The translations under genes and the position numbers were made by a program. Under the pieces are notes generated by a model, which saw only the letters and a program-made list of their open reading frames with translations, had not been told where the DNA came from and did no database searches. 64,000 nucleotides of DNA from Bryobacterales bacterium (GTDB lineage: Bacteria; Acidobacteriota; Terriglobia; Bryobacterales; UBA6623): NCBI GenBank assembly GCA_963662745.2, contig CAXXUI010000002.1, positions 1,927,622 through 1,991,621 on the forward strand, written 5' to 3'. Position 1 is the first letter of the stretch. The number at the start of each line of letters is the position of its first letter. Shown here in pieces: positions 19,863 to 34,409 of the stretch.

Positions 19863-21688
19863 GGGTGTCTGCTCCTCGCAGATGGTCTGCCGAGAAGAGT
19901 ACCATCTTACCAAGATCTCGCATCGACGGGCGGGCAGCTCGAGTGCATCTGTGGAGGCTACTCCTGGGAGGTCTTGCAGATCAGCGTGACAGTGACGGCT
20001 GCCTAGACAATCCATGGTGTCGCAGATTCGTGTGCGCTGCTGGCGGCTGTTCGGGGGGCGGACGAGTCGCAAGTTGGCGCTTGTGATCCGGCCCGCTGCC
20101 GACGCCAGCGCTCGATACGGGAGGCGGTCAGTTTCGGCAGTTTCCTGTTAGCTTCCGATCGGGCTTGCAGCGCACTCTCGCCGGCTTTGATCGCTTCGTC
20201 GAGGTGAGGGCGCTGGCGTGAGCCGTGACCAGGCCCGTACAGCGGTTGGGGCATGTACTCGCTCTCGCTCTCGGCACCTCAGACGTCCTTACATCGAGCC
20301 GCCGAGGACACCTCTGAGCGGGCTGCGGACGCACATGGGAACGGATCAGCGCCAGACGGTGCCAGCACCACGGAGGGAGTAGCTGTCCCAAGCGGGCCCG
20401 CCCCGTACTGCTCGTCGGCCATGCCGTCTTTCCGCCCTCGCGACTTGGTCCGTCGAGCGGTGGCTACCGGTGCGGGAACTCGCTCTCGTCCCGCCCACGC
20501 CACAACTGTGCATGGCTTGTTGCCGGGTGCATCCTCGATCGGTAGCGTCGGGCTCCCGCCGGCCAGTAGGGCTCGCTCTCACGGCTGCCTGTCAGCGGAG
20601 AAATGGCGGTCTCCACAGACGGACGCGTCCAGCCAAGGCCGGAAGCCCATTCATCTTGGTGGCACACGTGTAGCGAAGTCTGTGTCGCGGCTCTCGGAAG
20701 GGGCGCGTCCACTGGACTGATTCAGAGCCAGAGGCACCGTAGAGTTGAGGGCGGTGCGACTCAGACAAGGGCGAGTTGTGCGCGCCTTCGAAGTCTCGCA
20801 GGCCGTCCTTGGCGAATGTGAGTTGCCTCTCGATGTGGGACTGGTGTATGTTCGCGCGGTAGACCTAGGCCCTGCTCACGCGCGGGCCTTCGTCCCAGCC
20901 GTGGCGCCGGAGACACCTTCAGGCCACAGTCCCTGAGGGGCCCAAACCTCGCCGGCACAACCTCCAGTACACGCCACATGTGTTGCCTCGTGGCGCGGCT
21001 GGACCCTCAAGGAAGCATCTCGGCTCGTGACCGACGCGCCCAAGCCGAGGTCGCCGTTGAAAATTGCGGTGCGGACGATGACGTGCTCGCGGTCGGCCAG
21101 CCCGTGCCGCCCGCTGACTCTTGCCGACGCTTACCAGCGATTGATTCGTGAACGCCGGTGGGCCCTAGCATCACGAGCCCCCGGTGGGGCGGTTCAGGCT
21201 ACCTTGACCGGTGGTCTTGGTCTCTCAGCTCGCAGGTGAAGAGCTGCCTGATCAGGTGATGCCAGCTCACTCAGCGACTAGGCATGCCAAAGAAGTCAGA
21301 CTTCGTTACAAGTGTGCCACCACGAAGACTGGGTCCTCCACCTCGGCGGGACGCCGGCTGCTCCCGGGACGGTCTCACCGAAGCCAAGATCGCCCGGCAG
21401 GACCGAATTGCCAGCGCTGGAGCGAGTCAGGACCCACCGGTCATCCGTGCGCCGGGCCATTCAGAACAATGGCATGGGGGGAAGTGCGTCCGCATCCGCT
21501 CTCGCAGCCACCGGTCCCAAGCCGAATATCAGAGAGTGGCACAACGGCCATCGCCAACGCCCACTCTCGGATGGGCTCGGTTGCGATGTCCAACCGATGC
21601 GCGGTGGCGGTACTGTCTCTTACAGCCCAGCAGGAGCATGCGTTAGTAGGCGGTCCAGCCCCGTTCTCGATCGCTAGGTGTAACAATT

Positions 21689-21728
21689 CCTGGACCCAGA
21701 CTCCCCATATGACTGCAGTCGGACCAGG
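21689..21728 (-). terminator. imperfect inverted repeat downstream of the 917-aa gene, possible terminator or island edge
   Basis: CCTGGACCCAGACT (21689-21702) faces AGTCGGACCAGG (21717-21728). On the minus-strand RNA the hairpin is followed by AAUUGUUA. It lies about 80 nt after the stop, at the GC transition. Confidence 0.3.
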
Positions 21729-21806
21729 AGCAGACCCCGGCATCTATAGGTGCGTACTAACTAAGCGTTCGAAGTCGCGACGATGGTTATTCCGAGACAC
21801 GTTCGT

Positions 21807-24560
21807 CTACTTGACTGGTCTGACTCCACCCCTCCTGCCCAGTCCATATCCGACCCGATACACATCGGGGATGTCAACACGTCCGTCCTTCATACGTCTG
21901 AACAAGTTGAGTTCTTCAAGATCTCTTCGAACACCGGACTCGGCGAGATTGAGGTGACGAGGAGGCAGCTTTGTGTGGCCCATATTCACTTCGTCCTGGA
22001 GTCTGCTAATGACGTCGTTCTTCCTCCATTTCTGTTCGATCTCACCGAACTCACATGGAACTACGAGTCCAGCCAGAGGAACTAGGAGCCGATTCACCCA
22101 AGGATAATCTTCACAAATCTCCAGAATTCGTATCTTGGACGCTTTCTGCACTCCCCGCTTAATGCTCTCGAAATGTAGGGCGTTATGGTGGTCAGGATAG
22201 CGACGAGAGGTGTCGACAGCAGCGATTTTCAATGCGGCAAGGAACGACCGTGGGCTCACTTCTTGTTGTGCATCTCCAAGGTGATTGGGGATCCATGTGT
22301 AAGGGAACCCATGTTTGGGACTAGCGCCCATCCATGGCCCGGTGAGGACATGAAATTGGTTCCGTCGAAAATCAGGGTCAGTCGCTGGGGTCAGAGGAAT
22401 TTGAGACACTTCGTCCCCTACTCTTCGTGGTGTTGACCACCGTACCCTCTGAAGCAACGAACGAACCTGATCTCCGTAGGATCCATTAGCGAGTGTGTGC
22501 CAAAGCAATCCGTACAAGTCTCGCCGTGGCCAAGATAACTCAACAGCCGACGAGAGGACTTTATAAGAATCGGGAAAATCAGCAACTTCTTCTTCAATAA
22601 CTTGGTCTGACCGAAGGAATACCTTCACTCTCAGTCGTCGATAGGAGCGAATATCGCGAGTATGCATTAGCAACCCACGAATGAATGAAAGGACATCTAT
22701 CCATTTGTTTGAGCATAGATCCAAAGCATCGAACAGTACGAGATGAAACTTTCCCTCTCTGTCTAACTGGATATCTCTATCGTATAGCAGCTTGTCAATT
22801 CGCTTAGGATTTTGCACTACGAACTCTACTCGTTCAGACCAAGAACTGAACTTCCTGAGTGGACCATCGGCAGTCGCCAAGTGCTGTGCGTGAACCGTTC
22901 GCCAGATTTGCCTCGGTTTCACACCGCCTCTCGCCAATGCTTGGAGCTCATCCGGTGCGGGATAGCAGTCAGGATCCGCGGTCTCACCGAATCCAGTACA
23001 TACTTCTGAATTCGCATCAAGCTGAAATCTTCTATCTAGCTGAATGATCAATGATCGGATTCCAGAATCTTGTAGGGCAGTCCACCAAAAAGTCTTTCCC
23101 GATCCGCGCATTCCCGTGACCAGTGTTGTGTTTGGGTGCAGTGCACGGCGATGGGATGGTGGTAGGTATACTCTGCTTGGCGTGAGTGTTTCCCCATGGC
23201 TAGTTTCTTCCGGAAGAGCGATCAATGCCTTTCGGAAAATCTTCGTCTGGTCAGCCTTGTTGGTGTCCTCTGATTCTGTGCTGCTCCGGATACGACGATC
23301 GAACCACTTCAGGAAGTGTGCATAAGCCTGAATAACAGGTCCGTGAGCAGTTTGGCCGAGAGTGCGCAAGAACTCATCTGTCGTGAGACCACGATTCCAG
23401 AAGATCACCGACGGATCGTGTGGTGCTTCTTCAGAATCCAGATTGTAAGACATAATACTTGATTCATCGTCAGTTGCCAGTATAGAATCGTAGAGTTCAT
23501 CGCGAAATAAATTCCATGAGTGCTCCCTAAATCTTTCCAGATAGCCCGGATTATCGGGACCAGGTGTAAGTGCAGAGACAATCGAGAGTCTATCCCTAAT
23601 ATGTCGTGCTAAGCCGTGATCTCTCCAATGGCTGAACAAGAGTTTATAGTCAATCCAAGTGCTCTGGGAATCAACTGCAAACAGCAACACATCTGCGTCT
23701 AAATCTGTCACAGCTGTAGCAGCGACATCATGGAGCCCGCTCCGACTCTCAATGATGACGAAATCTGGTTTCAACTTCTCCTCCAAGCTGTCCAGAAGGC
23801 GGCTCACTCGACTTCTCCAAGGATCTACTTGGGTATCCATATAAACACGCCCAAGCTTAGCCAGATACTTGCCTGTATTACGGCCATGTGCCGGAACCAC
23901 CTTCACATCTCCTTGCATCTCATGGGCCCACCTCGGCGAAGCAATCATATCCTCAATGACGTGGTGACCCTGTGCGACCAGCTCTTCAACAAACCAGTCG
24001 ACTATTCCCAATTCAGGATGCGACCTCTTGTCGAGAATTGCCGATCCAATGCCTGGCGACTCGAGGTCCAAATCAACGATCACAACATCATGTCCTCGCT
24101 GCGCAAGATACCATGCTAGGACGGCAGCCGTAGTACTTCGACCAACGCCTCCCTTGATAGAATAGAGGACATATCTCGCAGGTCCAGTGCTCTTTCGTTC
24201 GCTGTGAACCGTCGACCACTCTTCGCCAACAAGAAGGCAGTCAATCCAGTAGCAGTTAGAATTGATCTTGACTCTCGTATCTCGAAATTCTTCAAGCAAC
24301 TCGTCTTCGACCCACAGTACTGGCCCGTCATTCAAGCCACTGTGACGTCCTAGAGCCTCTTGTAGTGTGTTCGCCAAGTGCTCCACCGTCATGCATACTG
24401 ACTTGTCAGCTCGGAACCGCTCCGAAATCGAGATGCTGATTCGTCCAAAGAGATCGCAAACGAAGTGGATGTCGGGTGAATCTTCTCGCCAATCAGTATG
24501 ATGGATAGCATCCAACACACGATTGCGTGCATCGTCGAACAAGATCCGCTTGTTTGTCAT
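21807..24560 (-). CDS. 917-aa double P-loop NTPase: unknown N-domain + KGGVGR-variant ParA/MinD-like ATPase + second P-loop NTPase + C-terminal domain
   Basis: The ATG at 24558-24560 is preceded by GGAAGGAAG. Walker A no. 1 is SIKGGVGRST (nt 24132-24155), with DLDLESPG and DFVIIESRSG. Walker A no. 2 is GMRGSGKT (nt 23091-23114), with Walker-B-like HLVLFDALD (aa 606-614). Codon usage is AT-rich. Confidence 0.85.
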   Translation of the reverse strand: MTNKRILFDDARNRVLDAIHHTDWREDSPDIHFVCDLFGRISISISERFRADKSVCMTVEHLANTLQEALGRHSGLNDGPVLWVEDELLEEFRDTRVKINSNCYWIDCLLVGEEWSTVHSERKSTGPARYVLYSIKGGVGRSTTAAVLAWYLAQRGHDVVIVDLDLESPGIGSAILDKRSHPELGIVDWFVEELVAQGHHVIEDMIASPRWAHEMQGDVKVVPAHGRNTGKYLAKLGRVYMDTQVDPWRSRVSRLLDSLEEKLKPDFVIIESRSGLHDVAATAVTDLDADVLLFAVDSQSTWIDYKLLFSHWRDHGLARHIRDRLSIVSALTPGPDNPGYLERFREHSWNLFRDELYDSILATDDESSIMSYNLDSEEAPHDPSVIFWNRGLTTDEFLRTLGQTAHGPVIQAYAHFLKWFDRRIRSSTESEDTNKADQTKIFRKALIALPEETSHGETLTPSRVYLPPSHRRALHPNTTLVTGMRGSGKTFWWTALQDSGIRSLIIQLDRRFQLDANSEVCTGFGETADPDCYPAPDELQALARGGVKPRQIWRTVHAQHLATADGPLRKFSSWSERVEFVVQNPKRIDKLLYDRDIQLDREGKFHLVLFDALDLCSNKWIDVLSFIRGLLMHTRDIRSYRRLRVKVFLRSDQVIEEEVADFPDSYKVLSSAVELSWPRRDLYGLLWHTLANGSYGDQVRSLLQRVRWSTPRRVGDEVSQIPLTPATDPDFRRNQFHVLTGPWMGASPKHGFPYTWIPNHLGDAQQEVSPRSFLAALKIAAVDTSRRYPDHHNALHFESIKRGVQKASKIRILEICEDYPWVNRLLVPLAGLVVPCEFGEIEQKWRKNDVISRLQDEVNMGHTKLPPRHLNLAESGVRRDLEELNLFRRMKDGRVDIPDVYRVGYGLGRRGGVRPVK

Positions 24561-25228
24561 AGTCTTCCTTCCAGTTTTGCTTTGCGAATCATTCTTCGGA
24601 TACCTTGAGCTGCACTACGATGTTTCTTGACGATCTCCTCGGTAGTGCATCTACTATGCACGTACCGATCGTTCGTTGACCAATCTATGAATGGACTTCC
24701 CTTAGGAAGTCGACGCAGAAACCAACTTCTTCTTCGTCCATGCGACAACTTCTTAAACTCCTTCCAGAGTATATTTACATGCTCGCGAATGGGAGACTTA
24801 TTCAATCTTACTAATGCCAGTTTCAGCCCGCATTCGGCACTGAATCCATAGAGTTGGTCTGCATTACTCAAACGCTTGCAACTAAGCAACAACTCTGCAT
24901 CGTTCCAATGGCGCAGATGCGCGTCTTCGAAGTCATCAACTCTAGTCACGAAGTGCACTTCTCCTCTGTCGTGAATTGTGAGATTCTGCTCCTTCGCTGG
25001 ATAGTTCGAGCCCAAGTCAATGTTGTCACTAGGAGCACTGGACAACCTCACTAAACCGCTGTTGATACCAGGGATATTGGGCTGAACACACATAGGGATG
25101 TCCGATATGCACCGAAAGGCTTGGACGTACTCCTCCCCTGTCTTGCTGGAGGTTGATTCGGGGATCTTGCCAAGGTGCAGTTGCCCACCGCAGCCGAGGC
25201 CCTCTTTGATTGCCGTTCCGCGGCGCAA
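24557..25228 (-). CDS. hypothetical protein with a HEPN-like C-terminal helical domain (tentative)
   Basis: The stop overlaps the downstream start in ATGA (24557-24560). The C-terminal AELLLSCKRLSNADQLYGFSAECGLKLAL...DRYVHSRCTTEEIVKKHRSAAQGIRRMI resembles the PF05168-type HEPN pattern from memory. The listed start is a TTG at 25228. An ATG at 25091-25093 (MCVQPN..., 178 aa) is an alternative. Confidence 0.7.
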   Translation of the reverse strand: MRRGTAIKEGLGCGGQLHLGKIPESTSSKTGEEYVQAFRCISDIPMCVQPNIPGINSGLVRLSSAPSDNIDLGSNYPAKEQNLTIHDRGEVHFVTRVDDFEDAHLRHWNDAELLLSCKRLSNADQLYGFSAECGLKLALVRLNKSPIREHVNILWKEFKKLSHGRRRSWFLRRLPKGSPFIDWSTNDRYVHSRCTTEEIVKKHRSAAQGIRRMIRKAKLEGRL

Positions 25229-26347
25229 GAGGCAGATTGCAATGTATGTCTCGCAGTGGCAAGGTGCCGTGCGCTAGATCGACCAAGGCAAGATTTGCTG
25301 CTCCTCTCTCGCTTGAGGCGTGTCCTAGCGGCGGCAGCAGGCGGCCCTGTAGCAGTCGTGCCGAGCCGCTGTAGGTGCCGGGTGCAGCCGGTGCGACTTC
25401 GCTTGCTGACCTGAATAGTGCCCTATCACACCCTCGGCAGCACTCGCCGGGTTCTTGCGTTGCCCTCGTGCTTCTCACTGTGTTCAGCATATCGGAGTGG
25501 TTTCGGGGGACCCGATCAGGTCCTCATAGGATAGCGGTTCCAACTTAGCTGTATCGCTCATGCCTCGGGGCGGGAGGGCAGGGCAACTGAACGCCGGTCG
25601 CGGAGTGCCGGAGAGCCGCGAACGCCTCCCCGTACCGCATCCCAGGCCGGCGCTTGGACAAGGCTAGGTCCGCACTCAGAGACGGCGCGACCTGAGCCTA
25701 GCGGGTCCGGGTGGTCGGACATATCAGCGAACGACGTGTCGAGTGGACACGGTGTAGGCCGGAAACGCGCCCGCTGTCGTAGAGTCCTGAGACTCATGTC
25801 TGTGGGTCGTCGTAGCGTCTTGAACCCCGGAGGAGGCATATCCGCGTCTAGCGTGCCAGGCGGCCCGACGTATCTCTACGCTGAGGCGGTGAGCACTGTT
25901 CTGACCCGGCTGCGGGCGTACGTGACCGCTGGGCTGCGTGAGGCAGTGCCAGCACCAGCGATAGGGTCGACCTTGCAACCGAATCCGATCAGTTGTGCTC
26001 GCCTGCGATGCCGTCATATACACCTCGTGGCGTGGTCCCATGGAGCGGTGGCAGGTGGTGCAGGGATCGTCTCGTTGGAGCCTCGCCATAACTCTGTACG
26101 GCCCACCAGCTGGGCAGGGCCGCGCTCATGGTCGGGAACACATTCATCCGTGTGCCAAGAAACAGACAGCGAGGCATACGGGGCTCGCTACGCGCTACAC
26201 CGCAGGTAAGCGTCTGAGTTGCTCGGCCACGACAGATCCCTCACTGGCAGATCCACTACTCGCTTGGTACGCGTGCTGCGCCGCTAGTTCTCCCGTCAGC
26301 GACGCCGTCTGCCGTTCTCCGTCCGACCATCGGCAGCCGCCATCCAG

Positions 26348-28072
26348 TTGTGGGCATCACGAACCGCAAGCGAGCCAAGGACCGTTGAACGCAGCGTGTC
26401 TCGACCCGGACGGCGCAAGTACAATGCTGGTTTGGTAAGGCCTCTATCAGCGGCCCTCGTGCTGGCGTGGTGCGCGAGCGCTTGGGGGCAGGGCCCAGAG
26501 TTCCAGCTCCGTCTCGACTATGCCACGCAGCGAGCGGTCGACCGCGTTCTCGCCAAGGTGGATGCGGGGAGTGATGTCTGGACGGGTGAGCAGGACTTTG
26601 AGGAGATCGACGCTCGCCTGAAGAGCATCTCCGGAAGTCTGAAGCAGGATCCCGGCCATGTCGACGGGCTCCGCGAGATCACAGCGGACTTTGCCGGGCT
26701 CACGCTCGCGGAGTTCAAGATCGTCAACACGCGGCGCACCTTGGGCTCGCAGAATCGCGTCGATGTCGATGTTGAGTGGGAACTTGGGGGCAGGTCCGAA
26801 GACGGCCGGCTGCTCTCGCTCGCTGGTTCGGGTCTCATGACTTGGGATCGCTCCGCCGGCGGGTGGGAGCTGGTCGGGTTCAGTCCGTCCCGGGCGCGAC
26901 GTCTGCGAGGCGGCGAGCGGCACGGATTCGCGGAGGTCACCGACGCCGTCTTCGGGGGCGTGGACTCGTTCCGGACCCAGTTGGCCTTCGGCATCGATCA
27001 CTGGCGGGACTCGATGGACGCCGCGTTGGGCGTGAATGTCTATGGACACCAAGGGCTGGCGCTGGGCGACTATGACGGAGATGGACTCGACGACCTCTAC
27101 GTCAGCCAGCCCGGCGGCTTGCCGAACCGGCTCTATCGCAACAACGGAGACGGAACATTCTCGGATGCCACCCGCAGCGCTGGGCTCGGGATTCTCGACG
27201 ACACGTCGATGGCGCTGTTCGCGGATGTGGACAACGACTCGCGCCAGGACCTGATCCTGATTGGCTCGACACCGATGCTGTTCCGGCATGCCGGCGACGC
27301 CGGTTACGCCTACGATCCAGACTCGGGTCTGGATGTGGGTGACGACAGGGCAGCGATGTTTACCGGTGCCGCCATGGCTGACTACGACCGGGACGGCGAC
27401 TTGGACCTGTACGTGTGCGCCTACGATTTCTGGCAGTCCGGTTCCGACTACGACGCCCCGACTCCGTACTTTGACGCCACCAACGGCCCCGCCAACCTGC
27501 TGTTCCGCAACGACGGTGCCGGGCGCTTCGAGGAAGTGTCGGCGGGAGCCGGCCTGCAGCCGACCAACGACCGCTTCAGCTTCGCCGCCGCATGGGGCGA
27601 CTTCGACGACGACTCGGATCCTGACCTCTATGTCGCCAACGACTTCGGACGGAACAACCTCTATGTCAACAACGGCGACGGCACATTCTCCGACCGTGCT
27701 GCTGAGCTGGGCGTCGAAGACTTGGGCGCAGGCATGTCGGCGGCATGGGGCGACTACGACTCGGACGGAGATCTGGACCTGTACACGGCGAACATGTGGT
27801 CTTCGGCCGGGCTGCGGCTGACCGGCTCCGACCAATTCGCCGCCGTTGCTCCCGACGAGGGGCGGCGCGGCAGCTTCCGCCGTCAGGCCCAAGGGAACTC
27901 GTTGTTCCGCAACGACGGCGAGGCGGGTTTTGTTGATGTCAGCGTCGAGGCCGGAGTGCGCAAGGGGCGGTGGGCTTGGGCCTCTGACTTCGCCGACCTG
28001 GACGGGGACGGGCTGCTTGATCTCTTCGTGCAGAATGGCTACATCACTGGCGAGAGGCTCGACGACCTTTGA
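26348..28072 (+). CDS. FG-GAP/VCBS-repeat protein, N-terminal part of a CRTAC1/ASPIC-like protein (ends at an in-frame TGA)
   Basis: Repeated GDYDGDGLDDLYV / NRLYRNNGDGTFSD / GDFDDDSDPDLYVAND / NNLYVNNGDGTFSD motifs are present. The listed start is a TTG and uncertain. The same frame continues into 28094-30103 after one TGA. Confidence 0.85.
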   Translation: MWASRTASEPRTVERSVSRPGRRKYNAGLVRPLSAALVLAWCASAWGQGPEFQLRLDYATQRAVDRVLAKVDAGSDVWTGEQDFEEIDARLKSISGSLKQDPGHVDGLREITADFAGLTLAEFKIVNTRRTLGSQNRVDVDVEWELGGRSEDGRLLSLAGSGLMTWDRSAGGWELVGFSPSRARRLRGGERHGFAEVTDAVFGGVDSFRTQLAFGIDHWRDSMDAALGVNVYGHQGLALGDYDGDGLDDLYVSQPGGLPNRLYRNNGDGTFSDATRSAGLGILDDTSMALFADVDNDSRQDLILIGSTPMLFRHAGDAGYAYDPDSGLDVGDDRAAMFTGAAMADYDRDGDLDLYVCAYDFWQSGSDYDAPTPYFDATNGPANLLFRNDGAGRFEEVSAGAGLQPTNDRFSFAAAWGDFDDDSDPDLYVANDFGRNNLYVNNGDGTFSDRAAELGVEDLGAGMSAAWGDYDSDGDLDLYTANMWSSAGLRLTGSDQFAAVAPDEGRRGSFRRQAQGNSLFRNDGEAGFVDVSVEAGVRKGRWAWASDFADLDGDGLLDLFVQNGYITGERLDDL

Positions 28073-28093
28073 AGCTTCTTCTGGCGGCAGGTC

Positions 28094-30103
28094 GTGTCGC
28101 GCTCCCCCCTCCAGCCCGAAGGCTCCAAGACCTACGCTGACGCTTGGCGGGCCATCAACATCCTGATCCGCTCCGACGGCAGTTGGAGTGGCAGGGAGCG
28201 CAACCTCTGCTATCGCAATCGGGGTGACGGTACGTTTGAAGACGTGTCGTTCGTCACCGGCTTGGATCTCGCTGCCGACGGCCGGGCGTTTCTGCCGCTG
28301 GATTTCGACTCGGACGGCGATCTGGACCTCATCGTGAAGAATCGCAATGGCCGCCAGTTGCGGGCGTTGCGGAACGACCTCGACGCCCCGGCGGGGCGGC
28401 GCTTGGCGATTCGACTCAGTGGACGAGAGAGCAATCGGGATGGTGTCGGCGGCCGGATCTGGGTTGAGACGGACCGCCGGACACTCATGCGAGAGATCGT
28501 TTCCGGGAGCGGGTATCTTTCGCAGAGGTCTCGGCAGGCGTGGTTCGGGCTGGCTGGGGAGGAGCGCGTGCAGTCAGTGAGGGTTCGCTGGCCGCTGGGT
28601 GGGCTTCAGGAGATCGCTAATCCGCCCCAAGCGGGAGAGCTGACGCTGGTGGAGGGTGAGACCGCCTTTCGGCCCTCGCCGCAGTCTGCCGCTCCTTCCT
28701 CGCCCTCCGAGCCGGCCGGCGTCCTCTCTCGCGGAGTGACGGGCACGCCGCTGGCCCGACCGGTTCCGGCGCCTGACTTCGACCTGCCGCTGGTCGACGG
28801 AGTGGGACAGTCGCTGAAGCTGTCGTCTCTGCGCGGACGCTCGGTGCTGCTCAATTTCTGGGCGACCTGGTGCCCTCCCTGCCAGCGCGAGCTGGCGGAA
28901 CTCCAGCAGGGCTTGGCTGCTCTTAGCCGCCGAGGTGTGGATCTGGTCGCCGTTTCGGTGGACGAGCCCGGCCAGCTCCCCCAAGTGCGGGCGATGGCCG
29001 ACGAGTTGGGCCTGGAGTTCCCCGTAGTGCTCGCCGACACGCCCACGGCTGAGGCGTACAGCATCCTGAACGAACGCCTGTTCGACCGGCGCCGCGCCCT
29101 AGCGATCCCCACCAGCCTTCTGCTGGATGGCCAAGGCAGAATAGTGCGCGTGTTCCGTGGCGAAGTGAGTTCCTCAGAGGTGCTGCGCGCGGCCGCATCC
29201 GGCCCGGTCTCGCCCCTGCCGTTCGACGGCCAGTGGATCCAGTCGGCGCCGCGCCGTGACTTTGAGGAGCTGGGATCGGCACTGGCGGAGCGGGGGCTGT
29301 CCTCCGCTGCGCTGACCATGTTCGGGGAAGCGCTTGCTAGAGGGGGGCGGTCAGCTCGCTTGCTCAACAACATGGCCGGCGTGCTCGTAGCCAGCGGCGA
29401 CCCGGATAGGGCCGAAGGCCTCTTGCGGGAAGCCTTGGCGCTGGAACCTGCCATGGCCGACGCCAAGGTGAACCTCGCTTCCCTGCTGGCAGGCAGGGGG
29501 GACGGGGCAGAGGCCGAGCAGCTGCTGGAGCAGGCGCTGGCTTCGCAGCCGCGGGACGCACAGGCGCTCTCCGTTCTGGGAACACTTCATTTCTCGGCCG
29601 GGCGGCTTGAAGCTGCGGAGGGCCTCTTCCGGCGAGCCGTGGAGGCACGGCCTGATGACGCGCGGCTTCGGGAGAACCTCGGCGCCGCTTTGGCCTCGAT
29701 GGGTGCCTTCGCCGAAGCTGCGACCCACTACGAGAGCGCCCGGGACCTCGGAGCGGAGGGTGCCGCACTGTATACCAACCTAGGCGTCATTTACATGCAG
29801 ACTGGTCGAGTCAATGAGGCGCTGCCCGCCTTCCTCCAAGCGGCAGCAGAGGCCCCTGGAGAGGCCGGCCCCCAGATCAACCTCGCTCGCTTCCACATGC
29901 AGGCGGGAGACCTTGAACGGGCTGCGGCTGCGGTCCGTCGTGCCAAGAGTCTGGAGCCCCAGGACCTCGGAGTCCGGATGGCGGAGGCCCAGGTGCTGGT
30001 ACTGCAGGGTGCCGACACGGCTGCTCGAGAAGCGCTGGACCGGATCCTGCGAGAGCGTCCGGACCTGGCCGCAGCGCGGACTCTCCTTGAGAGCCTCGAC
30101 TAA
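28094..30103 (+). CDS. ASPIC/UnbV-like + TlpA/ResA-type thioredoxin + TPR-repeat protein (same frame as 26348-28072)
   Basis: It has YRNRGDGTFEDVS and NRDGVGGRIWVE...SGSGYLSQ (UnbV/ASPIC-like), FWATWCPPCQRELAEL (thioredoxin CxxC) and C-terminal TPR-like repeats. The listed GTG start lies 7 codons after the TGA. Confidence 0.85.
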   Translation: MSRSPLQPEGSKTYADAWRAINILIRSDGSWSGRERNLCYRNRGDGTFEDVSFVTGLDLAADGRAFLPLDFDSDGDLDLIVKNRNGRQLRALRNDLDAPAGRRLAIRLSGRESNRDGVGGRIWVETDRRTLMREIVSGSGYLSQRSRQAWFGLAGEERVQSVRVRWPLGGLQEIANPPQAGELTLVEGETAFRPSPQSAAPSSPSEPAGVLSRGVTGTPLARPVPAPDFDLPLVDGVGQSLKLSSLRGRSVLLNFWATWCPPCQRELAELQQGLAALSRRGVDLVAVSVDEPGQLPQVRAMADELGLEFPVVLADTPTAEAYSILNERLFDRRRALAIPTSLLLDGQGRIVRVFRGEVSSSEVLRAAASGPVSPLPFDGQWIQSAPRRDFEELGSALAERGLSSAALTMFGEALARGGRSARLLNNMAGVLVASGDPDRAEGLLREALALEPAMADAKVNLASLLAGRGDGAEAEQLLEQALASQPRDAQALSVLGTLHFSAGRLEAAEGLFRRAVEARPDDARLRENLGAALASMGAFAEAATHYESARDLGAEGAALYTNLGVIYMQTGRVNEALPAFLQAAAEAPGEAGPQINLARFHMQAGDLERAAAAVRRAKSLEPQDLGVRMAEAQVLVLQGADTAAREALDRILRERPDLAAARTLLESLD

Positions 30104-30345
30104 GGGGTGCGTATCGGCACTCCGCCACTGAGGGCCTCCGGACCGATGCAGCCGGTCGACTGGCCGTGCGTGGGGCGCCGTCGTTCTGCCGTCCAGTGCT
30201 CCTCGTCTGAGGAGGCGCCCCTATCGGCTAACATCGTTGTTGCAGCCCGGTGCCCGTGACGCCAAGCGGCCTTCGGCTTCGGGAAAGTGCGGGCCTGCTG
30301 GCTCGGAAGCGAGTCCAGTCTCAAGCAGGAAGGAAGGATGATTCT

Positions 30346-30891
30346 ATGGCGAATTCGGAGTCGAGCCAATCCTCCCAATTGGTTGGCAGCCCCTCAAGGT
30401 TGAGGGACGACAGTTGGGGCGTTCGCGTGCGCGGCGAGGCGCAGCCCGGCGACAAGGTCGAAGTCAAGACCCGGTCCGGCAAGTCTTGGCAGTCCACGGT
30501 CGAGTCGATCGTGTGGTCCGGCACGGACCGGGAGACGGGTGGGCCGATCACACTGTGCCGGATGGAAGGCGACAAGAAGGCCGCCTCGAGCGGGGGGCAG
30601 TCCACCGTGGCGCATCCTTTGGTCGCCGCGGGCAAGAAGGTCGCCCGGATGGCGAGCCGGATGTCCAACCAGCAGAGCGACAGGAATCGGCAGGGGCTGT
30701 TCGAGGCCATGCGCGCGCTTGGCAGCCACTTAGGGATTCAGGTCCAGATGTCCGGGGCGGGCAGTCCCGCTGTTCGGGACGCTTCGGGAGGGGCTGCCGC
30801 TGGTCCTGCTGACCGAGGAGCTGCGCCGGCGCCCAACGATTCCGACGATCCGGGCGAGTTCAACGGCGACCCCGACGACGTACCCTTCTAG
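30346..30891 (+). CDS. hypothetical protein: small beta-rich N-domain, low-complexity linker, acidic DDVPF C-terminus
   Basis: The ATG at 30346 is preceded by AGGAAGGAAGGA at good spacing, and third-position GC is high. No family was recognised. It ends ...EFNGDPDDVPF. Confidence 0.6.
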   Translation: MANSESSQSSQLVGSPSRLRDDSWGVRVRGEAQPGDKVEVKTRSGKSWQSTVESIVWSGTDRETGGPITLCRMEGDKKAASSGGQSTVAHPLVAAGKKVARMASRMSNQQSDRNRQGLFEAMRALGSHLGIQVQMSGAGSPAVRDASGGAAAGPADRGAAPAPNDSDDPGEFNGDPDDVPF

Positions 30892-31154
30892 GTTCTAGAG
30901 CGCCGCCGCCCGGAGTTCCCGGACGCCGAGCCTCAGCCCCTGTCGTTCTCGGGCTCGCCGCTCGGACGGGGGCAGCCTGCTGCGCGCGGGCCAGCCCAGG
31001 CTTGGGCCCCTCAACTTCGGAATCCGACAAGCGCTTCCATGTCGGTTCCTTGGCATAGTTGCGGGTGTAGCCGTGTCGGATTGCCTGGGAAGGGCGAGTA
31101 TACTGGGCCCGGCGCCGCCTATTGGCGGGCGGCGGTGTGACTGAAGGAGGAATC

Positions 31155-34100
31155 ATGTGTTTCTTGAAGCAGCTCGCCCAGGTGCTTGCAGTGATGGTGC
31201 TAGCGGTGCCACTGCTGCTCGCCCAGCAGTCTGGATTGACCGGTTCCGTGGCAGACACAACCGGAGCTGTCATCGTCTCGGCCGACGTGATCCTGACGAA
31301 CAGCGACACCGGCGTAGTGACCGCGACCCAGACCAACGAGTCCGGCGTGTTCAATTTCACTCTGGTGCAGCCGGGCAGCTACGAGCTGCGTTGTGAGTCC
31401 GTCGGCTTCAAGGCCTATCAGCAGTCCGGCCTCGTGATGGAGACCGGCCTCACCAAGACGGTCACGCTCCGGCTGGAGATTGGCGAAATCACCGAGACCA
31501 TCGAAGTGACGGGCTCGGTGCCCATATTGGAGACGGAGAACACCACCGTGGGGCAGTTCATCGAGCGCACCACTGTCGCGCAGATGCCCGTCGGCAGCCG
31601 CCAGGCCGGACAGCTCATCAAGCTGGCTGGCAACGTGACGTTCGCCAATTCCGGCGGCGGCCTGTACGACCTTCCGTTCTTCTCGATGGCGGGTGGGCGG
31701 TCAAGGAACCAGATGTGGCATCTTGACGGTGGTGTCGTTCAGAACATGGCTCTCGGCATCGCCCAGCTCAACCTGAATCCTCCAGTGGAATCCCTGCGGG
31801 AGTTCAAGGTCGAGTCCAACAACTATGCCGCTGAATTCGGCCGCACGGGCAACGGCCTCATCATCATGAGCACTCGGTCGGGGACCAACGAGCTGCACGG
31901 TGCCCTCTACCACAACTTCCGCAACGACAAGCTCGACGCCAGGACCTTCTTCGCGCCCCGCGTCGCGCCCCTCCGCTACAACATCTTCGGCGGCTCGCTG
32001 GGCGGGCCGATCCAGCGGGACAAGTCGTTCTTCTTCGTCAACTACGAAGGGCAGCGCCGCAGCGACGGCCTCACCATCGCCAACACCGATGTGCCGCACC
32101 CGATCGAAGTGACCGGAGATTTCTCGAACCGCAGCGGCTTCGGACTCAAGGACCCGCTCACCGGCGAGGCGTTCGCCAACAACCTGATCCCCGCCAGCCG
32201 GATCGACTCACTCGGCAGCGCCTTCGCGGCTCTGTACCCGGCCCCCAACGTCAGCAGCCCCTTGGCCTCGGCTCCCAGAGACAACTACGTCAAGAACGTG
32301 GCCAACAAGGGCGTGTCCGACTTCACGACGGTCAGGGTCGACCACAACTTCGGTCCCAGCGACCGCCTTTCGAGCCGTTTCAGCTACGTGTCCGCTCCGG
32401 CCGAGATCCAGCCGGTGTATCCCAACGAGTTCGCCGACTTCCGCGGAGCGAACCAGACGAGGTCCAATCTCGTGTCGACCTCGACATGGAGCCACAACTT
32501 CACCACGACGATGGTCAACGAGTTCCGCTACACGTTCGGGAACCGGACATTCACCACCCGGGGCCTTGGCAACGGCAGCGGCAAGAACGGCGAGCTTGGC
32601 GTGCCGAACGTCGACCCAGAGTTCTTCGCCACGGTGAACTTGGTGGGCTACACCCGCCTCGGAGCCGGCAACCAGGAGCGCATCCAGAAGCCTATCCGAA
32701 CGCACCAAGTGGTCAACAACACCTCGTGGTTCAAGGGCGCCCACAGCGTCAAGTGGGGAGTGGAGTACCGCTACTCGCGCAATCAGGACGACTTCAACCA
32801 GTTCGCCGGTGGCAGCTTCACCTTCAACAACCGGGCGACCGGGGACGCGCTGGCGCAGCTGCTGCTCGGCTGGACCACGCGTGGCCAGCTGGTGGACACC
32901 GACATCCTCAACACCCGCAGCGACTACTGGGGCTTCTATGTCCAGGACAGTTGGAAGGTCAACGACCGGCTCACGCTCAACTTGGGGCTGCGCTGGGACC
33001 TCGACACGCCGCGCTGGGAGCTCAACGACCACCAGAGCGGATTCGATCCGTACGGGACCAACCCGGCCTGCGACTGCCCGGGGGCGATGCTGTTCGCGGC
33101 CCGCAACGGCCGCAGCAGGTACGCCCACGACATGGACCTGAACAATTTCGGGCCCCGGATCGGGTTCGCCTACCGCGTCGGCTCATCCACTGTGATCCGG
33201 GCGGGCTACGGAGTGAACTACAACGGCGTGTACGCCCGGGCGGTACCGTTCACGCAGTTCTGGACCTTCTCCCGAACGCTCGACATCAACTCGCCGGACG
33301 GCGGCTTCACGCCGGCCTTTCCGCTCTCCAGCGGGCTTCCGGCCGTGGCGCCGTTCACCGAGGATGACCGCGTCGCCTCCTTCGGCGCGGTCACCGAGGG
33401 CCGCCGAACGGTCTCGCCGGACTTCTTTCAGCAGAACCAGGAGAACGGCCAGTCGCAGCAGTGGAACTTCACAGTCCAGAAGCAGTTGCCGGACAACATG
33501 CTGCTCGAGGCGCAGTACCAGGCCAACGTGGCTCACCGCCTCGGCGGGCCGGACTACAACCTGAACATGATCCCCTTGGCGGGCGGTCGCGGTCCGGAGT
33601 CGCAGAGCCAGGCCCTGCGCCCGTTCCCGCAGTACAACAACGTGCAGCTTGAGAGCCCTGACTGGGGCAACTCGACGTACCACTCGCTGAATCTCAAGGC
33701 GGAGAAGCGCTTCTCAAGCGGACTCAGCTTCCTGTTCAACTACACGTGGTCGAAGTTCATCGACGATGTCGAGTCGGCCAACGAGCTGGGCGGCGAGCAG
33801 AACAACGGCTACACCCACATCGCGCTGCGCCACTTGGACAAGGCGCTCTCAGGCAACGACATCCGCCATCGACTGGTGGCGAGCGGCGTCTACGAGCTTC
33901 CAGCCGGCAGCGGCAAGCCCTGGTCTCCCGACAACCCGGTGCTGCAAGGCGTGTTCGGGGGTTGGAGCCTCGGCGTAATCGCGGAGCTGCGTACCGGTTC
34001 GCCCTACGGGATCATCGAGCAGACCAATCGCAGCAATGCCTTCAGTCACGGTCAGCGTCCGAACCTGCTGGGGCCTCACCAGCTGTCCGGCGGCCGCTCC

Positions 34101-34409
34101 AAGGCGGAGCGGCTGGTCCGTTGGTTCGACACCTCGCAGTTCGAGGCGCCCGGTGTCGGTGTTTTCGGGAATTCTCCGCGCAATGTCTGCTGCGGCCCCG
34201 GATTCAGCGTTATCGACGTTTCGGTGCAGAAGAAGTTCCAAGTCACCGAGCGGGCACGCCTTGAGTTCCGCGCGGATTTCTTCAACTTGGCCAATCACGC
34301 CAACTTCAATATTCCTGAGCGGCGGCGTGGCAACGCCGGGTTCGGAAGGATTCGGGGCACGATCGGGACAGGCCGTCAGACGCAGCTCGGGTTGCGTCTA
34401 GAGTTCTAG
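31155..34409 (+). CDS. TonB-dependent receptor with N-terminal carboxypeptidase-regulatory-like domain
   Basis: The ATG at 31155 is preceded by GAAGGAGG, followed by a signal peptide. It has GSVADTTGAVIVSADVILTN...GSYELRCESVGF (CarboxypepD_reg-like), a plug region, and a C-terminal ...GRQTQLGLRLEF ending in Phe as in outer-membrane barrels. Confidence 0.9.
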   Translation: MCFLKQLAQVLAVMVLAVPLLLAQQSGLTGSVADTTGAVIVSADVILTNSDTGVVTATQTNESGVFNFTLVQPGSYELRCESVGFKAYQQSGLVMETGLTKTVTLRLEIGEITETIEVTGSVPILETENTTVGQFIERTTVAQMPVGSRQAGQLIKLAGNVTFANSGGGLYDLPFFSMAGGRSRNQMWHLDGGVVQNMALGIAQLNLNPPVESLREFKVESNNYAAEFGRTGNGLIIMSTRSGTNELHGALYHNFRNDKLDARTFFAPRVAPLRYNIFGGSLGGPIQRDKSFFFVNYEGQRRSDGLTIANTDVPHPIEVTGDFSNRSGFGLKDPLTGEAFANNLIPASRIDSLGSAFAALYPAPNVSSPLASAPRDNYVKNVANKGVSDFTTVRVDHNFGPSDRLSSRFSYVSAPAEIQPVYPNEFADFRGANQTRSNLVSTSTWSHNFTTTMVNEFRYTFGNRTFTTRGLGNGSGKNGELGVPNVDPEFFATVNLVGYTRLGAGNQERIQKPIRTHQVVNNTSWFKGAHSVKWGVEYRYSRNQDDFNQFAGGSFTFNNRATGDALAQLLLGWTTRGQLVDTDILNTRSDYWGFYVQDSWKVNDRLTLNLGLRWDLDTPRWELNDHQSGFDPYGTNPACDCPGAMLFAARNGRSRYAHDMDLNNFGPRIGFAYRVGSSTVIRAGYGVNYNGVYARAVPFTQFWTFSRTLDINSPDGGFTPAFPLSSGLPAVAPFTEDDRVASFGAVTEGRRTVSPDFFQQNQENGQSQQWNFTVQKQLPDNMLLEAQYQANVAHRLGGPDYNLNMIPLAGGRGPESQSQALRPFPQYNNVQLESPDWGNSTYHSLNLKAEKRFSSGLSFLFNYTWSKFIDDVESANELGGEQNNGYTHIALRHLDKALSGNDIRHRLVASGVYELPAGSGKPWSPDNPVLQGVFGGWSLGVIAELRTGSPYGIIEQTNRSNAFSHGQRPNLLGPHQLSGGRSKAERLVRWFDTSQFEAPGVGVFGNSPRNVCCGPGFSVIDVSVQKKFQVTERARLEFRADFFNLANHANFNIPERRRGNAGFGRIRGTIGTGRQTQLGLRLEF

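Follow-up and report, generated by a model that had tools for sequence, protein, structure and literature searches.

We describe here a compact gene cassette of foreign composition in the genome of a Bryobacterales bacterium (Acidobacteriota; assembly GCA_963662745.2), found in a stretch of 64,000 nucleotides of contig CAXXUI010000002.1 (positions 1,927,622 to 1,991,621 of the forward strand; hereafter the window, to whose numbering all positions refer unless another locus is named). The cassette encodes a small HEPN-fold protein (gene A) and a 917-aa double ATPase (gene BC), and is almost certainly a variant, with fused B and C genes, of PDC-M28, a phage defence candidate of the PADLOC database. 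The original prediction, made from the letters of the window alone, had taken it for a candidate undescribed system whose domain order matches no named one. This did not hold, because the PADLOC models for PDC-M28 A, B and C all match and an NCBI family name exists. The locus is a real, foreign, catalogued-but-untested candidate rather than an undescribed system.

Payne et al. (bioRxiv 10.1101/2024.01.29.577857) defined PDC-M28 from genes found inside BREX, DISARM or type I restriction-modification (RM) systems, and their catalogue lists it as a three-gene cassette (CAS_00115, FAM_01482>>FAM_02546>>FAM_01036; count 121). The window shares the three families end-to-end, together with the A-B-C order, the strand and the overlapping stops and starts, and differs from the catalogue entry in that B and C form a single polypeptide. 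The assignment was made with the per-protein models of PADLOC-DB v2, and the locus is filed as a fusion variant because B and C are one open reading frame (ORF) and not two separate genes. At NCBI the fused protein goes by 'KGGVGR-motif variant AAA ATPase' or by 'P-loop NTPase', and no mention of PDC-M28, KGGVGR or Sll1717 in a relevant sense was found in the text of papers.

Gene layout and protein modules

The sharp drop in G + C content between about 21.7 and 25.2 kb that the original prediction had pointed out is confirmed, with values of 0.42-0.53 across this region versus 0.62-0.72 outside (300-nt segments). The cassette proper (21807-24949) has a G + C content of 0.494, which corresponds to z = -10.6 against the 212 other 3-kb segments of the stretch (mean 0.667, standard deviation 0.016, minimum 0.638). 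The G + C content at third codon positions (GC3) is 0.49 in the large gene and 0.45 in the small gene, and 0.77-0.87 in six neighbouring genes. The low-G + C segment is filled by two minus-strand ORFs (21807..24560, 917 aa, and 24557..25228). They were correctly predicted to share the sequence ATGA behind a Shine-Dalgarno sequence: the start codon of BC (ATG, 24560-24558) overlaps the stop codon of A (TGA, 24559-24557), and the purine-rich GGAAGGAAG lies just upstream. The overlap here and in most relatives supports the predicted co-expression of the two genes.

The small protein itself was predicted too long. Its 223-aa reading from TTG 25228 is over-extended, since homologues of gene A comprise 130-141 aa and their alignment is confined to 24949-24560; the A gene of the closest relative has 130 aa, exactly the length obtained from the GTG at 24949. 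The low-G + C leader 5' of gene A (Table 1) is presumed to be a promoter or 5' region that moved together with the cassette. A promoter scan of this leader detected no sigma-70 consensus site, and the scan for sigma-70 promoters and intrinsic terminators yielded nothing exceeding shuffled expectation.

Gene BC is covered almost completely by two PADLOC models: residues 6-427 match PDC-M28B (PDLC04559; E = 3.3e-127, model positions 3-435 of 438), and residues 438-916 match PDC-M28C (PDLC04561; E = 2.5e-160, model positions 5-479 of 480). The AlphaFold2 (AF2) model of the protein has an overall predicted local distance difference test score (pLDDT) of 79. The two different P-loop modules named in the original prediction are both present (KGGVGRS at aa 136-142 and GMRGSGKT at aa 483-490). 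They are preceded by an N-terminal alpha/beta domain (aa 1-115), which has no Pfam or NCBIfam match and is followed in the AF2 model by a disordered linker (aa 109-124).

The first ATPase module belongs to the NCBIfam family NF047398 ('KGGVGR-motif variant AAA ATPase'; aa 127-313, 169.1 bits versus a cut-off of 90). Pfam ParA, CbiA and AAA_31 match this module in the P-loop region only, and a search of the PDB with the BC sequence gave ParA matches at P-loop level and nothing more. By structure, Foldseek relates it to MinD, Soj, ParA, FlhG and NifH (template modelling (TM) scores of 0.5-0.7 per target). Among 39 sequences, the P-loop residues K136, G137, G138, G140 and S142 do not vary and R141 is kept in at least 90%, so that the motif reads KGGVGRS instead of the deviant Walker A motif KGGxGK[ST] of ParA and MinD. 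The Walker-B-like strand VIIESRSG is conserved in fused and split forms of the protein, and so is, within the ParA-like module, a switch-I-like DLD (DLDLES in the window).

The second module combines Walker A and Walker B motifs with structural similarity to ORC/Cdc6/BrxC-like AAA+ ATPases. Its Foldseek matches are Cdc6 (1fnn), ORC2 (1w5s/1w5t) and the BREX ATPase BrxC (9zdx_C), with E-values of 4e-5 to 7e-4 and global TM scores that are low because the query is multi-domain. It is related to the Sll1717 family of NCBIfam (NF047389) without being a member (49.4 bits versus a cut-off of 75, aa 576-819 only). The C-terminal motifs, which include GFPYTWIPNHLGD and SPRSF, are intact here and kept in fused and split relatives. 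All family-invariant residues and the Walker motifs are retained in the window. The cassette is probably functional.

Gene A matches the PADLOC model PDC-M28A (PDLC04558; E = 4.6e-37, model positions 3-137 of 138). Its AF2 model is a helical bundle (pLDDT 88, predicted TM score 0.84) with the four-helix up-down topology of HEPN domains, and the top nine Foldseek matches in the PDB are all HEPN domains (probability 0.75-0.99, TM 0.5-0.6, E-values 0.2-2), AbiV structures among them; a sequence search of the PDB returned nothing. Pfam HEPN_AbiV (PF18728) has weak matches in 19 of 42 homologues and none in gene A of the window. The Foldseek result and the weak matches of the homologues support the HEPN-like character that had been predicted for the small protein. 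The family has a mean column identity of 51%, and 20 of its residues, charged or polar in many cases, are invariant, including R16, H17, W18, D20, R29, N32, D34, E42, C43, K46 and H60. The conserved arginine and histidine residues are R16-H17, R29, H60, R98 and H113, with R98 and H113 near-invariant. The NCBI label 'SAM-dependent methyltransferase' on the homologue from Serratia marcescens looks like a misannotation of a HEPN-fold protein.

Table 1. Features of the PDC-M28 cassette in the window, with the positions of the transmembrane-TIR pair in four related loci
Feature	Position	Strand	Basis or remark
Gene BC, 917-aa PDC-M28B + PDC-M28C fusion	21807..24560	-	PADLOC models, near end to end
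N-terminal alpha/beta domain of BC (aa 1-115)	24216..24560	-	Within PDC-M28B model; AF2 pLDDT ~67-87
ParA/MinD-like (SIMIBI) ATPase module (aa 127-430), deviant P-loop KGGVGRS	23271..24182	-	NF047398, Pfam, Foldseek
P-loop of ParA-like module, K136-G-G-V-G-R141-S142	24135..24155	-	Arg in place of canonical P-loop Lys
Walker-B-like strand of ParA-like module, VIIESRSG (aa 268-275), acidic residue Glu271	23736..23759	-	E271 and G275 invariant
ORC/Cdc6/BrxC-like AAA+ (STAND-like) module and helical C-terminal region (aa 438-916)	21813..23249	-	PDC-M28C, Foldseek
Walker A of C module, GMRGSGKT (aa 483-490)	23091..23114	-	G483, R485, G486, G488, K489 and T490 invariant
Walker B of C module, LVLFDALD (aa 607-614)	22719..22742	-	D611, L613 and D614 invariant
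Gene A, small HEPN-fold protein of ~130 aa, PDC-M28A family	24557..24949	-	GTG 24949 probable start; GTG 24958 alternative
Translational-coupling junction: purine-rich GGAAGGAAG (24572-24564), then ATGA (24560-24557)	24557..24572	-	Direct sequence reading; same 4-nt A/B overlap in most related loci
Low-G + C leader 5' of gene A	24950..25200	-	G + C ~0.48-0.60 (100-nt profile)
Transmembrane-TIR pair in related loci	L007 12772-13721; L008 12742-13658; L001 10837-11777; L002 4763-5688		Downstream of BC

Relatives, mobility and insertion site

Relatives were collected by scanning one genome per species, which gave 204 loci, of which 80 were fetched. An exhaustive profile-free protein search returned 4085 representatives at E <= 1e-3 and 594 at E <= 1e-30, most of them separate B-like (~430 aa) or C-like (~480 aa) proteins; full-length homologues with the fused architecture form more than 60 clusters at 47-65% identity. 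The 80 loci cover Longimicrobiales/Gemmatimonadota, Vicinamibacterales, Rhodothermales, Spirochaetia, Alpha- and Gammaproteobacteria, Chloroflexota, Binatia, Entotheonella and Bacillota. A census of these loci with hidden Markov models (HMMs) built for the purpose showed that in most of them B and C are split, with overlapping stop and start codons, as in the canonical three-gene PDC-M28, and that A immediately precedes B and as a rule overlaps it by 4 nt. Gene A adjoins B or BC in about 88% of the loci, which bears out the co-conservation of the pair that had been proposed as a check of the original prediction; it is interrupted in two of the 80. One locus (L037, 12751-13212) has gene A downstream of C and not upstream of B. 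There is no further universal partner in the loci, which marks A, B and C as a self-contained unit.

The fused loci (14 of 14) form one clade of a neighbour-joining tree with no split locus inside, which indicates a single fusion event. A distant second B-C fusion (P0128, 35% identity) is probably independent, and the occurrence of two fusions would argue that B and C act as one physical unit. KGGVGR-type ParA-like modules are also fused to NACHT (P0073) and TPR (P0074) domains, and a C-like module occurs together with a calcineurin-like phosphoesterase (metallophosphoesterase) and NACHT (P0166).

In 10 of the 14 fused loci, BC is followed in the same operon by a 141-aa transmembrane protein with three hydrophobic helices (PDC-M50A; here X) and a ThsB-type TIR protein (PDC-M50B/ThsB in the PADLOC nomenclature). 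The spacing between BC and the pair, a 4-nt overlap or a gap of 17-18 nt, makes this a four-gene operon, and the link suggests a possible effector route. The pair is rare beside split A-B-C loci, and in L004 its place is taken by one TIR protein of 278 aa that is extended at the C-terminus. The window copy differs from these ten relatives in having no such pair: profile HMMs derived from 15 TIR and 11 X sequences found no gene or remnant of either in the six frames of both flanks, where they scored about 1 bit. A tblastn match at 20539-20255 (E = 0.027) was considered as a downstream TIR pseudogene and rejected as chance. The closest relative of the window copy (65% identity) also consists of A and BC, with no X or TIR gene directly downstream on its short contig.

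The cassette is horizontally acquired, as the original prediction had proposed. This conclusion is drawn from its G + C and GC3 contrast, from the identity between relatives, which is flat at 46-57% whatever the phylum, and from its presence on plasmids. Across the related loci the G + C content of the cassette is typically below that of its flanks (median difference -0.05, range down to -0.17 as in the window). It is carried by 24 plasmids, nine of them conjugative or mobilizable, which have their own replication genes elsewhere; at the two plasmid loci inspected it lies beside tyrosine recombinases, GNAT/DUF1778 and RelE/XRE toxin-antitoxin pairs, and insertion sequence (IS) elements. No copy was found in phage records. 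In Serratia marcescens (L086, 9001-12138) a complete split A-B-C cassette sits between dedD (SPOR) and cvpA-purF with no mobility genes nearby. Some relatives lie in clear defence islands, with Septu-like PtuA fragments, a PIN toxin-antitoxin pair, a DISARM-like combination of helicase, MZB and PLD, or an MmeI-type methyltransferase with an SNF2 helicase and transposases. Several relatives are visibly disrupted. Gene A of L066 is split by a 2-kb insertion, L033 has an insertion that separates the beginning of the cassette from the remainder, L065 has an IS66 transposase at the expected position of gene A, and the fused gene of L095 is called as two parts of 297 and 602 aa in a frameshift-like manner; these loci suggest turnover and decay of the cassette. 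The record titles of metagenome-assembled genomes among L006-L085 (Entotheonella, Ca. Palauibacter, tags RHO, COS and PNG) hint, by themselves, at an origin from marine sponges.

The cassette lies between genes for PSCyt/PSD1, DUF1501, ClpB, a DAO oxidoreductase and an Fe/Mn superoxide dismutase (SOD) on one side, and genes for FG-GAP/ASPIC, TPR-AhpC, an outer-membrane barrel and a hydrolase on the other. The predicted lack of convincing genes in the adjoining flanks was confirmed: the regions 20073-21806 and 24950-26347 have no Pfam, Rfam or tRNA match, and ten flank ORFs lack a Pfam match. These gene-poor flanks of about 1.7 and 1.4 kb have a G + C content of 0.62-0.64, slightly under the genome level, and are unusual in a compact bacterial genome. 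No tRNA, tmRNA or Rfam element that might have served as integration target was found in the window, even at E <= 1 in 19.9-26.5 kb, and a search for pseudogenes in the flanks gave no DNA or translated similarity to related loci above noise.

Two repeats were observed in the flanks. In the downstream gene-poor flank, an imperfect inverted repeat of 58 nt (78-81% complementary; 20625-20682 and 21297-21354) encloses 614 nt that have no Pfam match. It recurs nowhere else in the window and may represent the termini of a small mobile element in decay. The cassette is also flanked by a direct repeat of about 205 nt, the two copies of which (20313-20516 and 25900-26102; 66% identity, blastn E = 4e-6) have diverged and lie about 5.6 kb apart. 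Because the lengths of its indels are not divisible by three, this repeat is probably non-coding. It could be the trace of a duplication, or it could delimit a larger block that was inserted or rearranged. The insertion site is locally rearranged. All 13 related metagenome contigs (L097-L109) have the gene order outer-membrane barrel, FG-GAP, TPR-AhpC; in the window (26348-34409) the outer-membrane gene (31122-34409) is located downstream of TPR-AhpC, and the gene-poor flank and the island are located upstream of FG-GAP. For a comparison with an empty site, exact look-up of the BC and SOD proteins of the window retrieved no contig, and a metagenome scan with FG-GAP retrieved relatives of at most 67% identity, too distant to map boundaries.

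Proposed function and rival explanations

That the PDC-M28 locus has a real anti-invader (defence) function is, in our judgement, slightly favoured. As an explanation of the locus as a whole, we put forward an intact, horizontally acquired PDC-M28 copy of the B-C fused sub-clade that acts by NTPase-gated abortive infection, a reading with about even chances. The AAA+ module would serve as a nucleotide-dependent sensor or switch for invader DNA or a protein cue, as has been proposed for BrxC and DUF499-type ATPases, and the ParA-like module would add ATP-dependent dimerisation and/or non-specific DNA binding. Activation would then license the HEPN protein, probably a dimeric ribonuclease (RNase), to arrest the infected cell. 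In most fused relatives the transmembrane and ThsB-type TIR proteins would come in as further effectors, and the window copy would represent the PDC-M28 core only. This specific order of events from sensor to HEPN protein is tentative, with less than even chances. The signs of a conflict system are the origin of PDC-M28 in BREX, DISARM and RM systems, the relatives in defence islands, the transmembrane-TIR pair in the operons of the fused clade, and the NACHT, TPR and phosphoesterase fusions.

Several points weigh against abortive infection gated by these ATPases. No published experimental report on PDC-M28 was found, and another group called PDC systems unvalidated and excluded them from analysis. 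The gene A family conserves no canonical Rx4-6H motif in the 42-sequence alignment, and the best HEPN_AbiV score of a homologue (25.4 bits) is below the gathering threshold of 27.1, so that RNase activity is not assured. Hydrolysis by the ParA-like module could be altered or lost through the lysine-to-arginine change in its P-loop. In NTP-dependent conflict systems (vWA-MoxR/VMAP, STAND), domains of the MinD/ParA-like kind have been predicted to be inactive effectors, not switches (Kaur et al. 2020, PMC7159879). Seven of the 80 loci have no gene A in the 10 kb to either side, and no consistent substitute was found there (the neighbours are sulfatase, peroxidase, TauD, IS66 and SNF2 helicase genes). 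The genomic context points the same way. The neighbours in the window are housekeeping genes, and in the loci sampled the cassette is mostly a solo insertion, with a minority of copies beside RM or defence genes. In a Pfam census of the two nearest ORFs on each side at about 55 loci, the upstream neighbours are almost all diverse housekeeping genes. Downstream, the commonest families (AAA_21/AAA_15, ThsB_TIR, Eco57I/N6_Mtase/MmeI and helicases) each account for 2-4 of 110 ORFs, and about a tenth of the neighbours belong to RM or defence-type families; because the census has no background control, it neither proves nor excludes defence enrichment.

The missing Rx4-6H motif and the persistence of B and C in loci without A would also fit a reversal of roles, in which the AAA+ module senses, the ParA/MinD-like module is the effector (for example one that assembles on nucleoid or membrane with the help of ATP and thereby blocks division, segregation or phage DNA), and the HEPN protein is a non-catalytic regulator or adaptor. 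The KGGVGR ParA-like domains of the NACHT and TPR proteins are N-terminal, the usual effector position, and MinD/ParA-like domains are listed among the predicted effector domains of conflict systems (PMC7159879). Set against this, gene A is conserved as strongly as expected for an enzyme or a specific binder, in most loci it precedes B and is translationally coupled to it, and HEPN proteins of defence systems are typically RNase effectors (AbiV: 10.1101/2024.05.05.592566); we therefore regard the reversal as unlikely. We are equally sceptical of a toxin-antitoxin-like module that stabilises mobile elements by addiction, with a HEPN toxin restrained by the ATPases and the benefit going mainly to the element. 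The conjugative and mobilizable plasmids, the recombinases, toxin-antitoxin pairs and IS elements beside the plasmid copies, and the solo insertion in many chromosomes speak for such a module. However, two large ATPases (about 900 aa together) are far out of proportion to the task of an antitoxin, most copies sit in chromosomes and have no mobility genes beside them, and no phage-borne copy was found; the border between toxin-antitoxin and abortive infection systems is moreover blurred, so that addiction is partly compatible with abortive infection.

The window copy might also be an inert relic of a past transfer that has lost its transmembrane-TIR effector genes and no longer functions, given that X and TIR follow BC in most fused loci and are missing here, that its flanks are poor in genes and differ from related contigs by a rearrangement, and that some relatives are disrupted. 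This is very unlikely in view of two intact ORFs that span 3.1 kb and lack none of the family-invariant residues, of an A-B-C core without TIR that is the normal majority state of the family, of the same two-gene form in the closest relative, and of an unameliorated G + C content, which suggests recent arrival and not long decay. Hardly credible at all is a ParA-type system with a housekeeping role in DNA partition, in positioning or in the delivery of cofactors, although Pfam and NCBIfam matches to ParA, CbiA, MinD, Mrp, BcsQ and ArsA around the P-loop would suggest such a name and the module structurally resembles Soj and MinD. These matches cover little beyond the P-loop, whose canonical lysine is replaced by arginine; what accompanies the module is an ORC-like ATPase together with a HEPN protein, and not ParB, a centromere or MinE; the distribution is patchy, the insertion sites are unrelated and the G + C content is foreign; and the carrier plasmids bring replication genes of their own.

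New here are the B-C fusion clade of single origin and its operon link with the transmembrane-TIR pair, which is missing from the window copy, as well as the sub-threshold assignment of gene A to AbiV-like HEPN proteins without Rx4-6H and the predominance of solo insertions. Should PDC-M28 prove to be a real defence system, a class of ATPases otherwise known for positioning DNA and division proteins (ParA/MinD) would join the immune switches, and a HEPN protein without the classical catalytic motif would be added as well. A further-reaching version is conceivable but doubtful: PDC-M28 would be a genuine immune system with a mechanism new to validated defences, in which a ParA/MinD ATPase with an arginine P-loop is the obligate partner of an ORC/BrxC-like sensor and controls, together with it, a HEPN protein without Rx4-6H, and whose NTPase core has, in the fused clade, additionally captured a transmembrane and ThsB-TIR module. 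The two probably independent B-C fusions suggest the obligate partnership of the ParA-like and AAA+ modules, and an NTPase sensor would in this case be linked directly to Thoeris-like signalling. For the source genome, the locus means a recent foreign insertion at a rearranged site and no unknown class of system. Because the family is already catalogued, the main value of the locus is that of a pointer to an untested candidate, for which the B-C fusion (arguing for one machine), the transmembrane-TIR operon link and the homologues in culturable Serratia and on an Enterobacter IncF plasmid (Enterobacter bugandensis pSurvcare220, L091) provide handles for experiment.

Comparison with known systems

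Among characterized HEPN proteins, gene A most invites comparison with AbiV of Lactococcus, a proven HEPN RNase in a type III toxin-antitoxin-like abortive infection system, whose relatives vary in Rx4-6H (10.1101/2024.05.05.592566). The likeness lies in the small helical HEPN fold, the weak HEPN_AbiV matches of the homologues and the Foldseek matches. AbiV has 201 aa, an Rx4-6H motif of the RNHKSKH type and an antitoxin RNA as partner, whereas gene A has 130 aa, lacks the motif and is accompanied by two ATPases.

The B module has in common with ParA, MinD and Soj the fold and the signature first lysine of KGGxG, together with conserved DLD and Walker-B-like strands. It differs by the P-loop arginine, the glutamate in Walker B and the extra N-terminal domain of 115 aa. 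Instead of ParB with a centromere or MinE/MinC, the neighbours in the window are the HEPN gene, SOD and FG-GAP, and the partners across loci are A and C only. A ParA/MinD module within an NTPase-centred architecture is also known from the vWA-MoxR/VMAP (ternary) and STAND systems, which resemble the present family in this respect, and KGGVGR modules are themselves found fused to NACHT and TPR; compared by domain content, the window contains no vWA, MoxR or VMAP component. Thoeris and other TIR-based systems are approached by the relatives of the cassette and not by the window copy, since the TIR protein occurs in the relatives only.

BREX offers a parallel for the C half of the large protein, which is structurally similar to Cdc6/ORC and to BrxC. 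The window gives no sequence-level match to BrxC or to the likewise ORC/Cdc6-like DUF499/HmaC ATPases, BC carries the ParA-like module in addition, and the BREX-type partners (methyltransferase, PglZ and helicase) do not accompany the cassette. The pairing of a HEPN protein with an ORC-like ATPase is nevertheless a shared theme: fusions of HEPN with DUF499, itself an ORC-like ATPase, have been described in BREX-related systems, where they are read as backup suicide effectors (PMC12839542).

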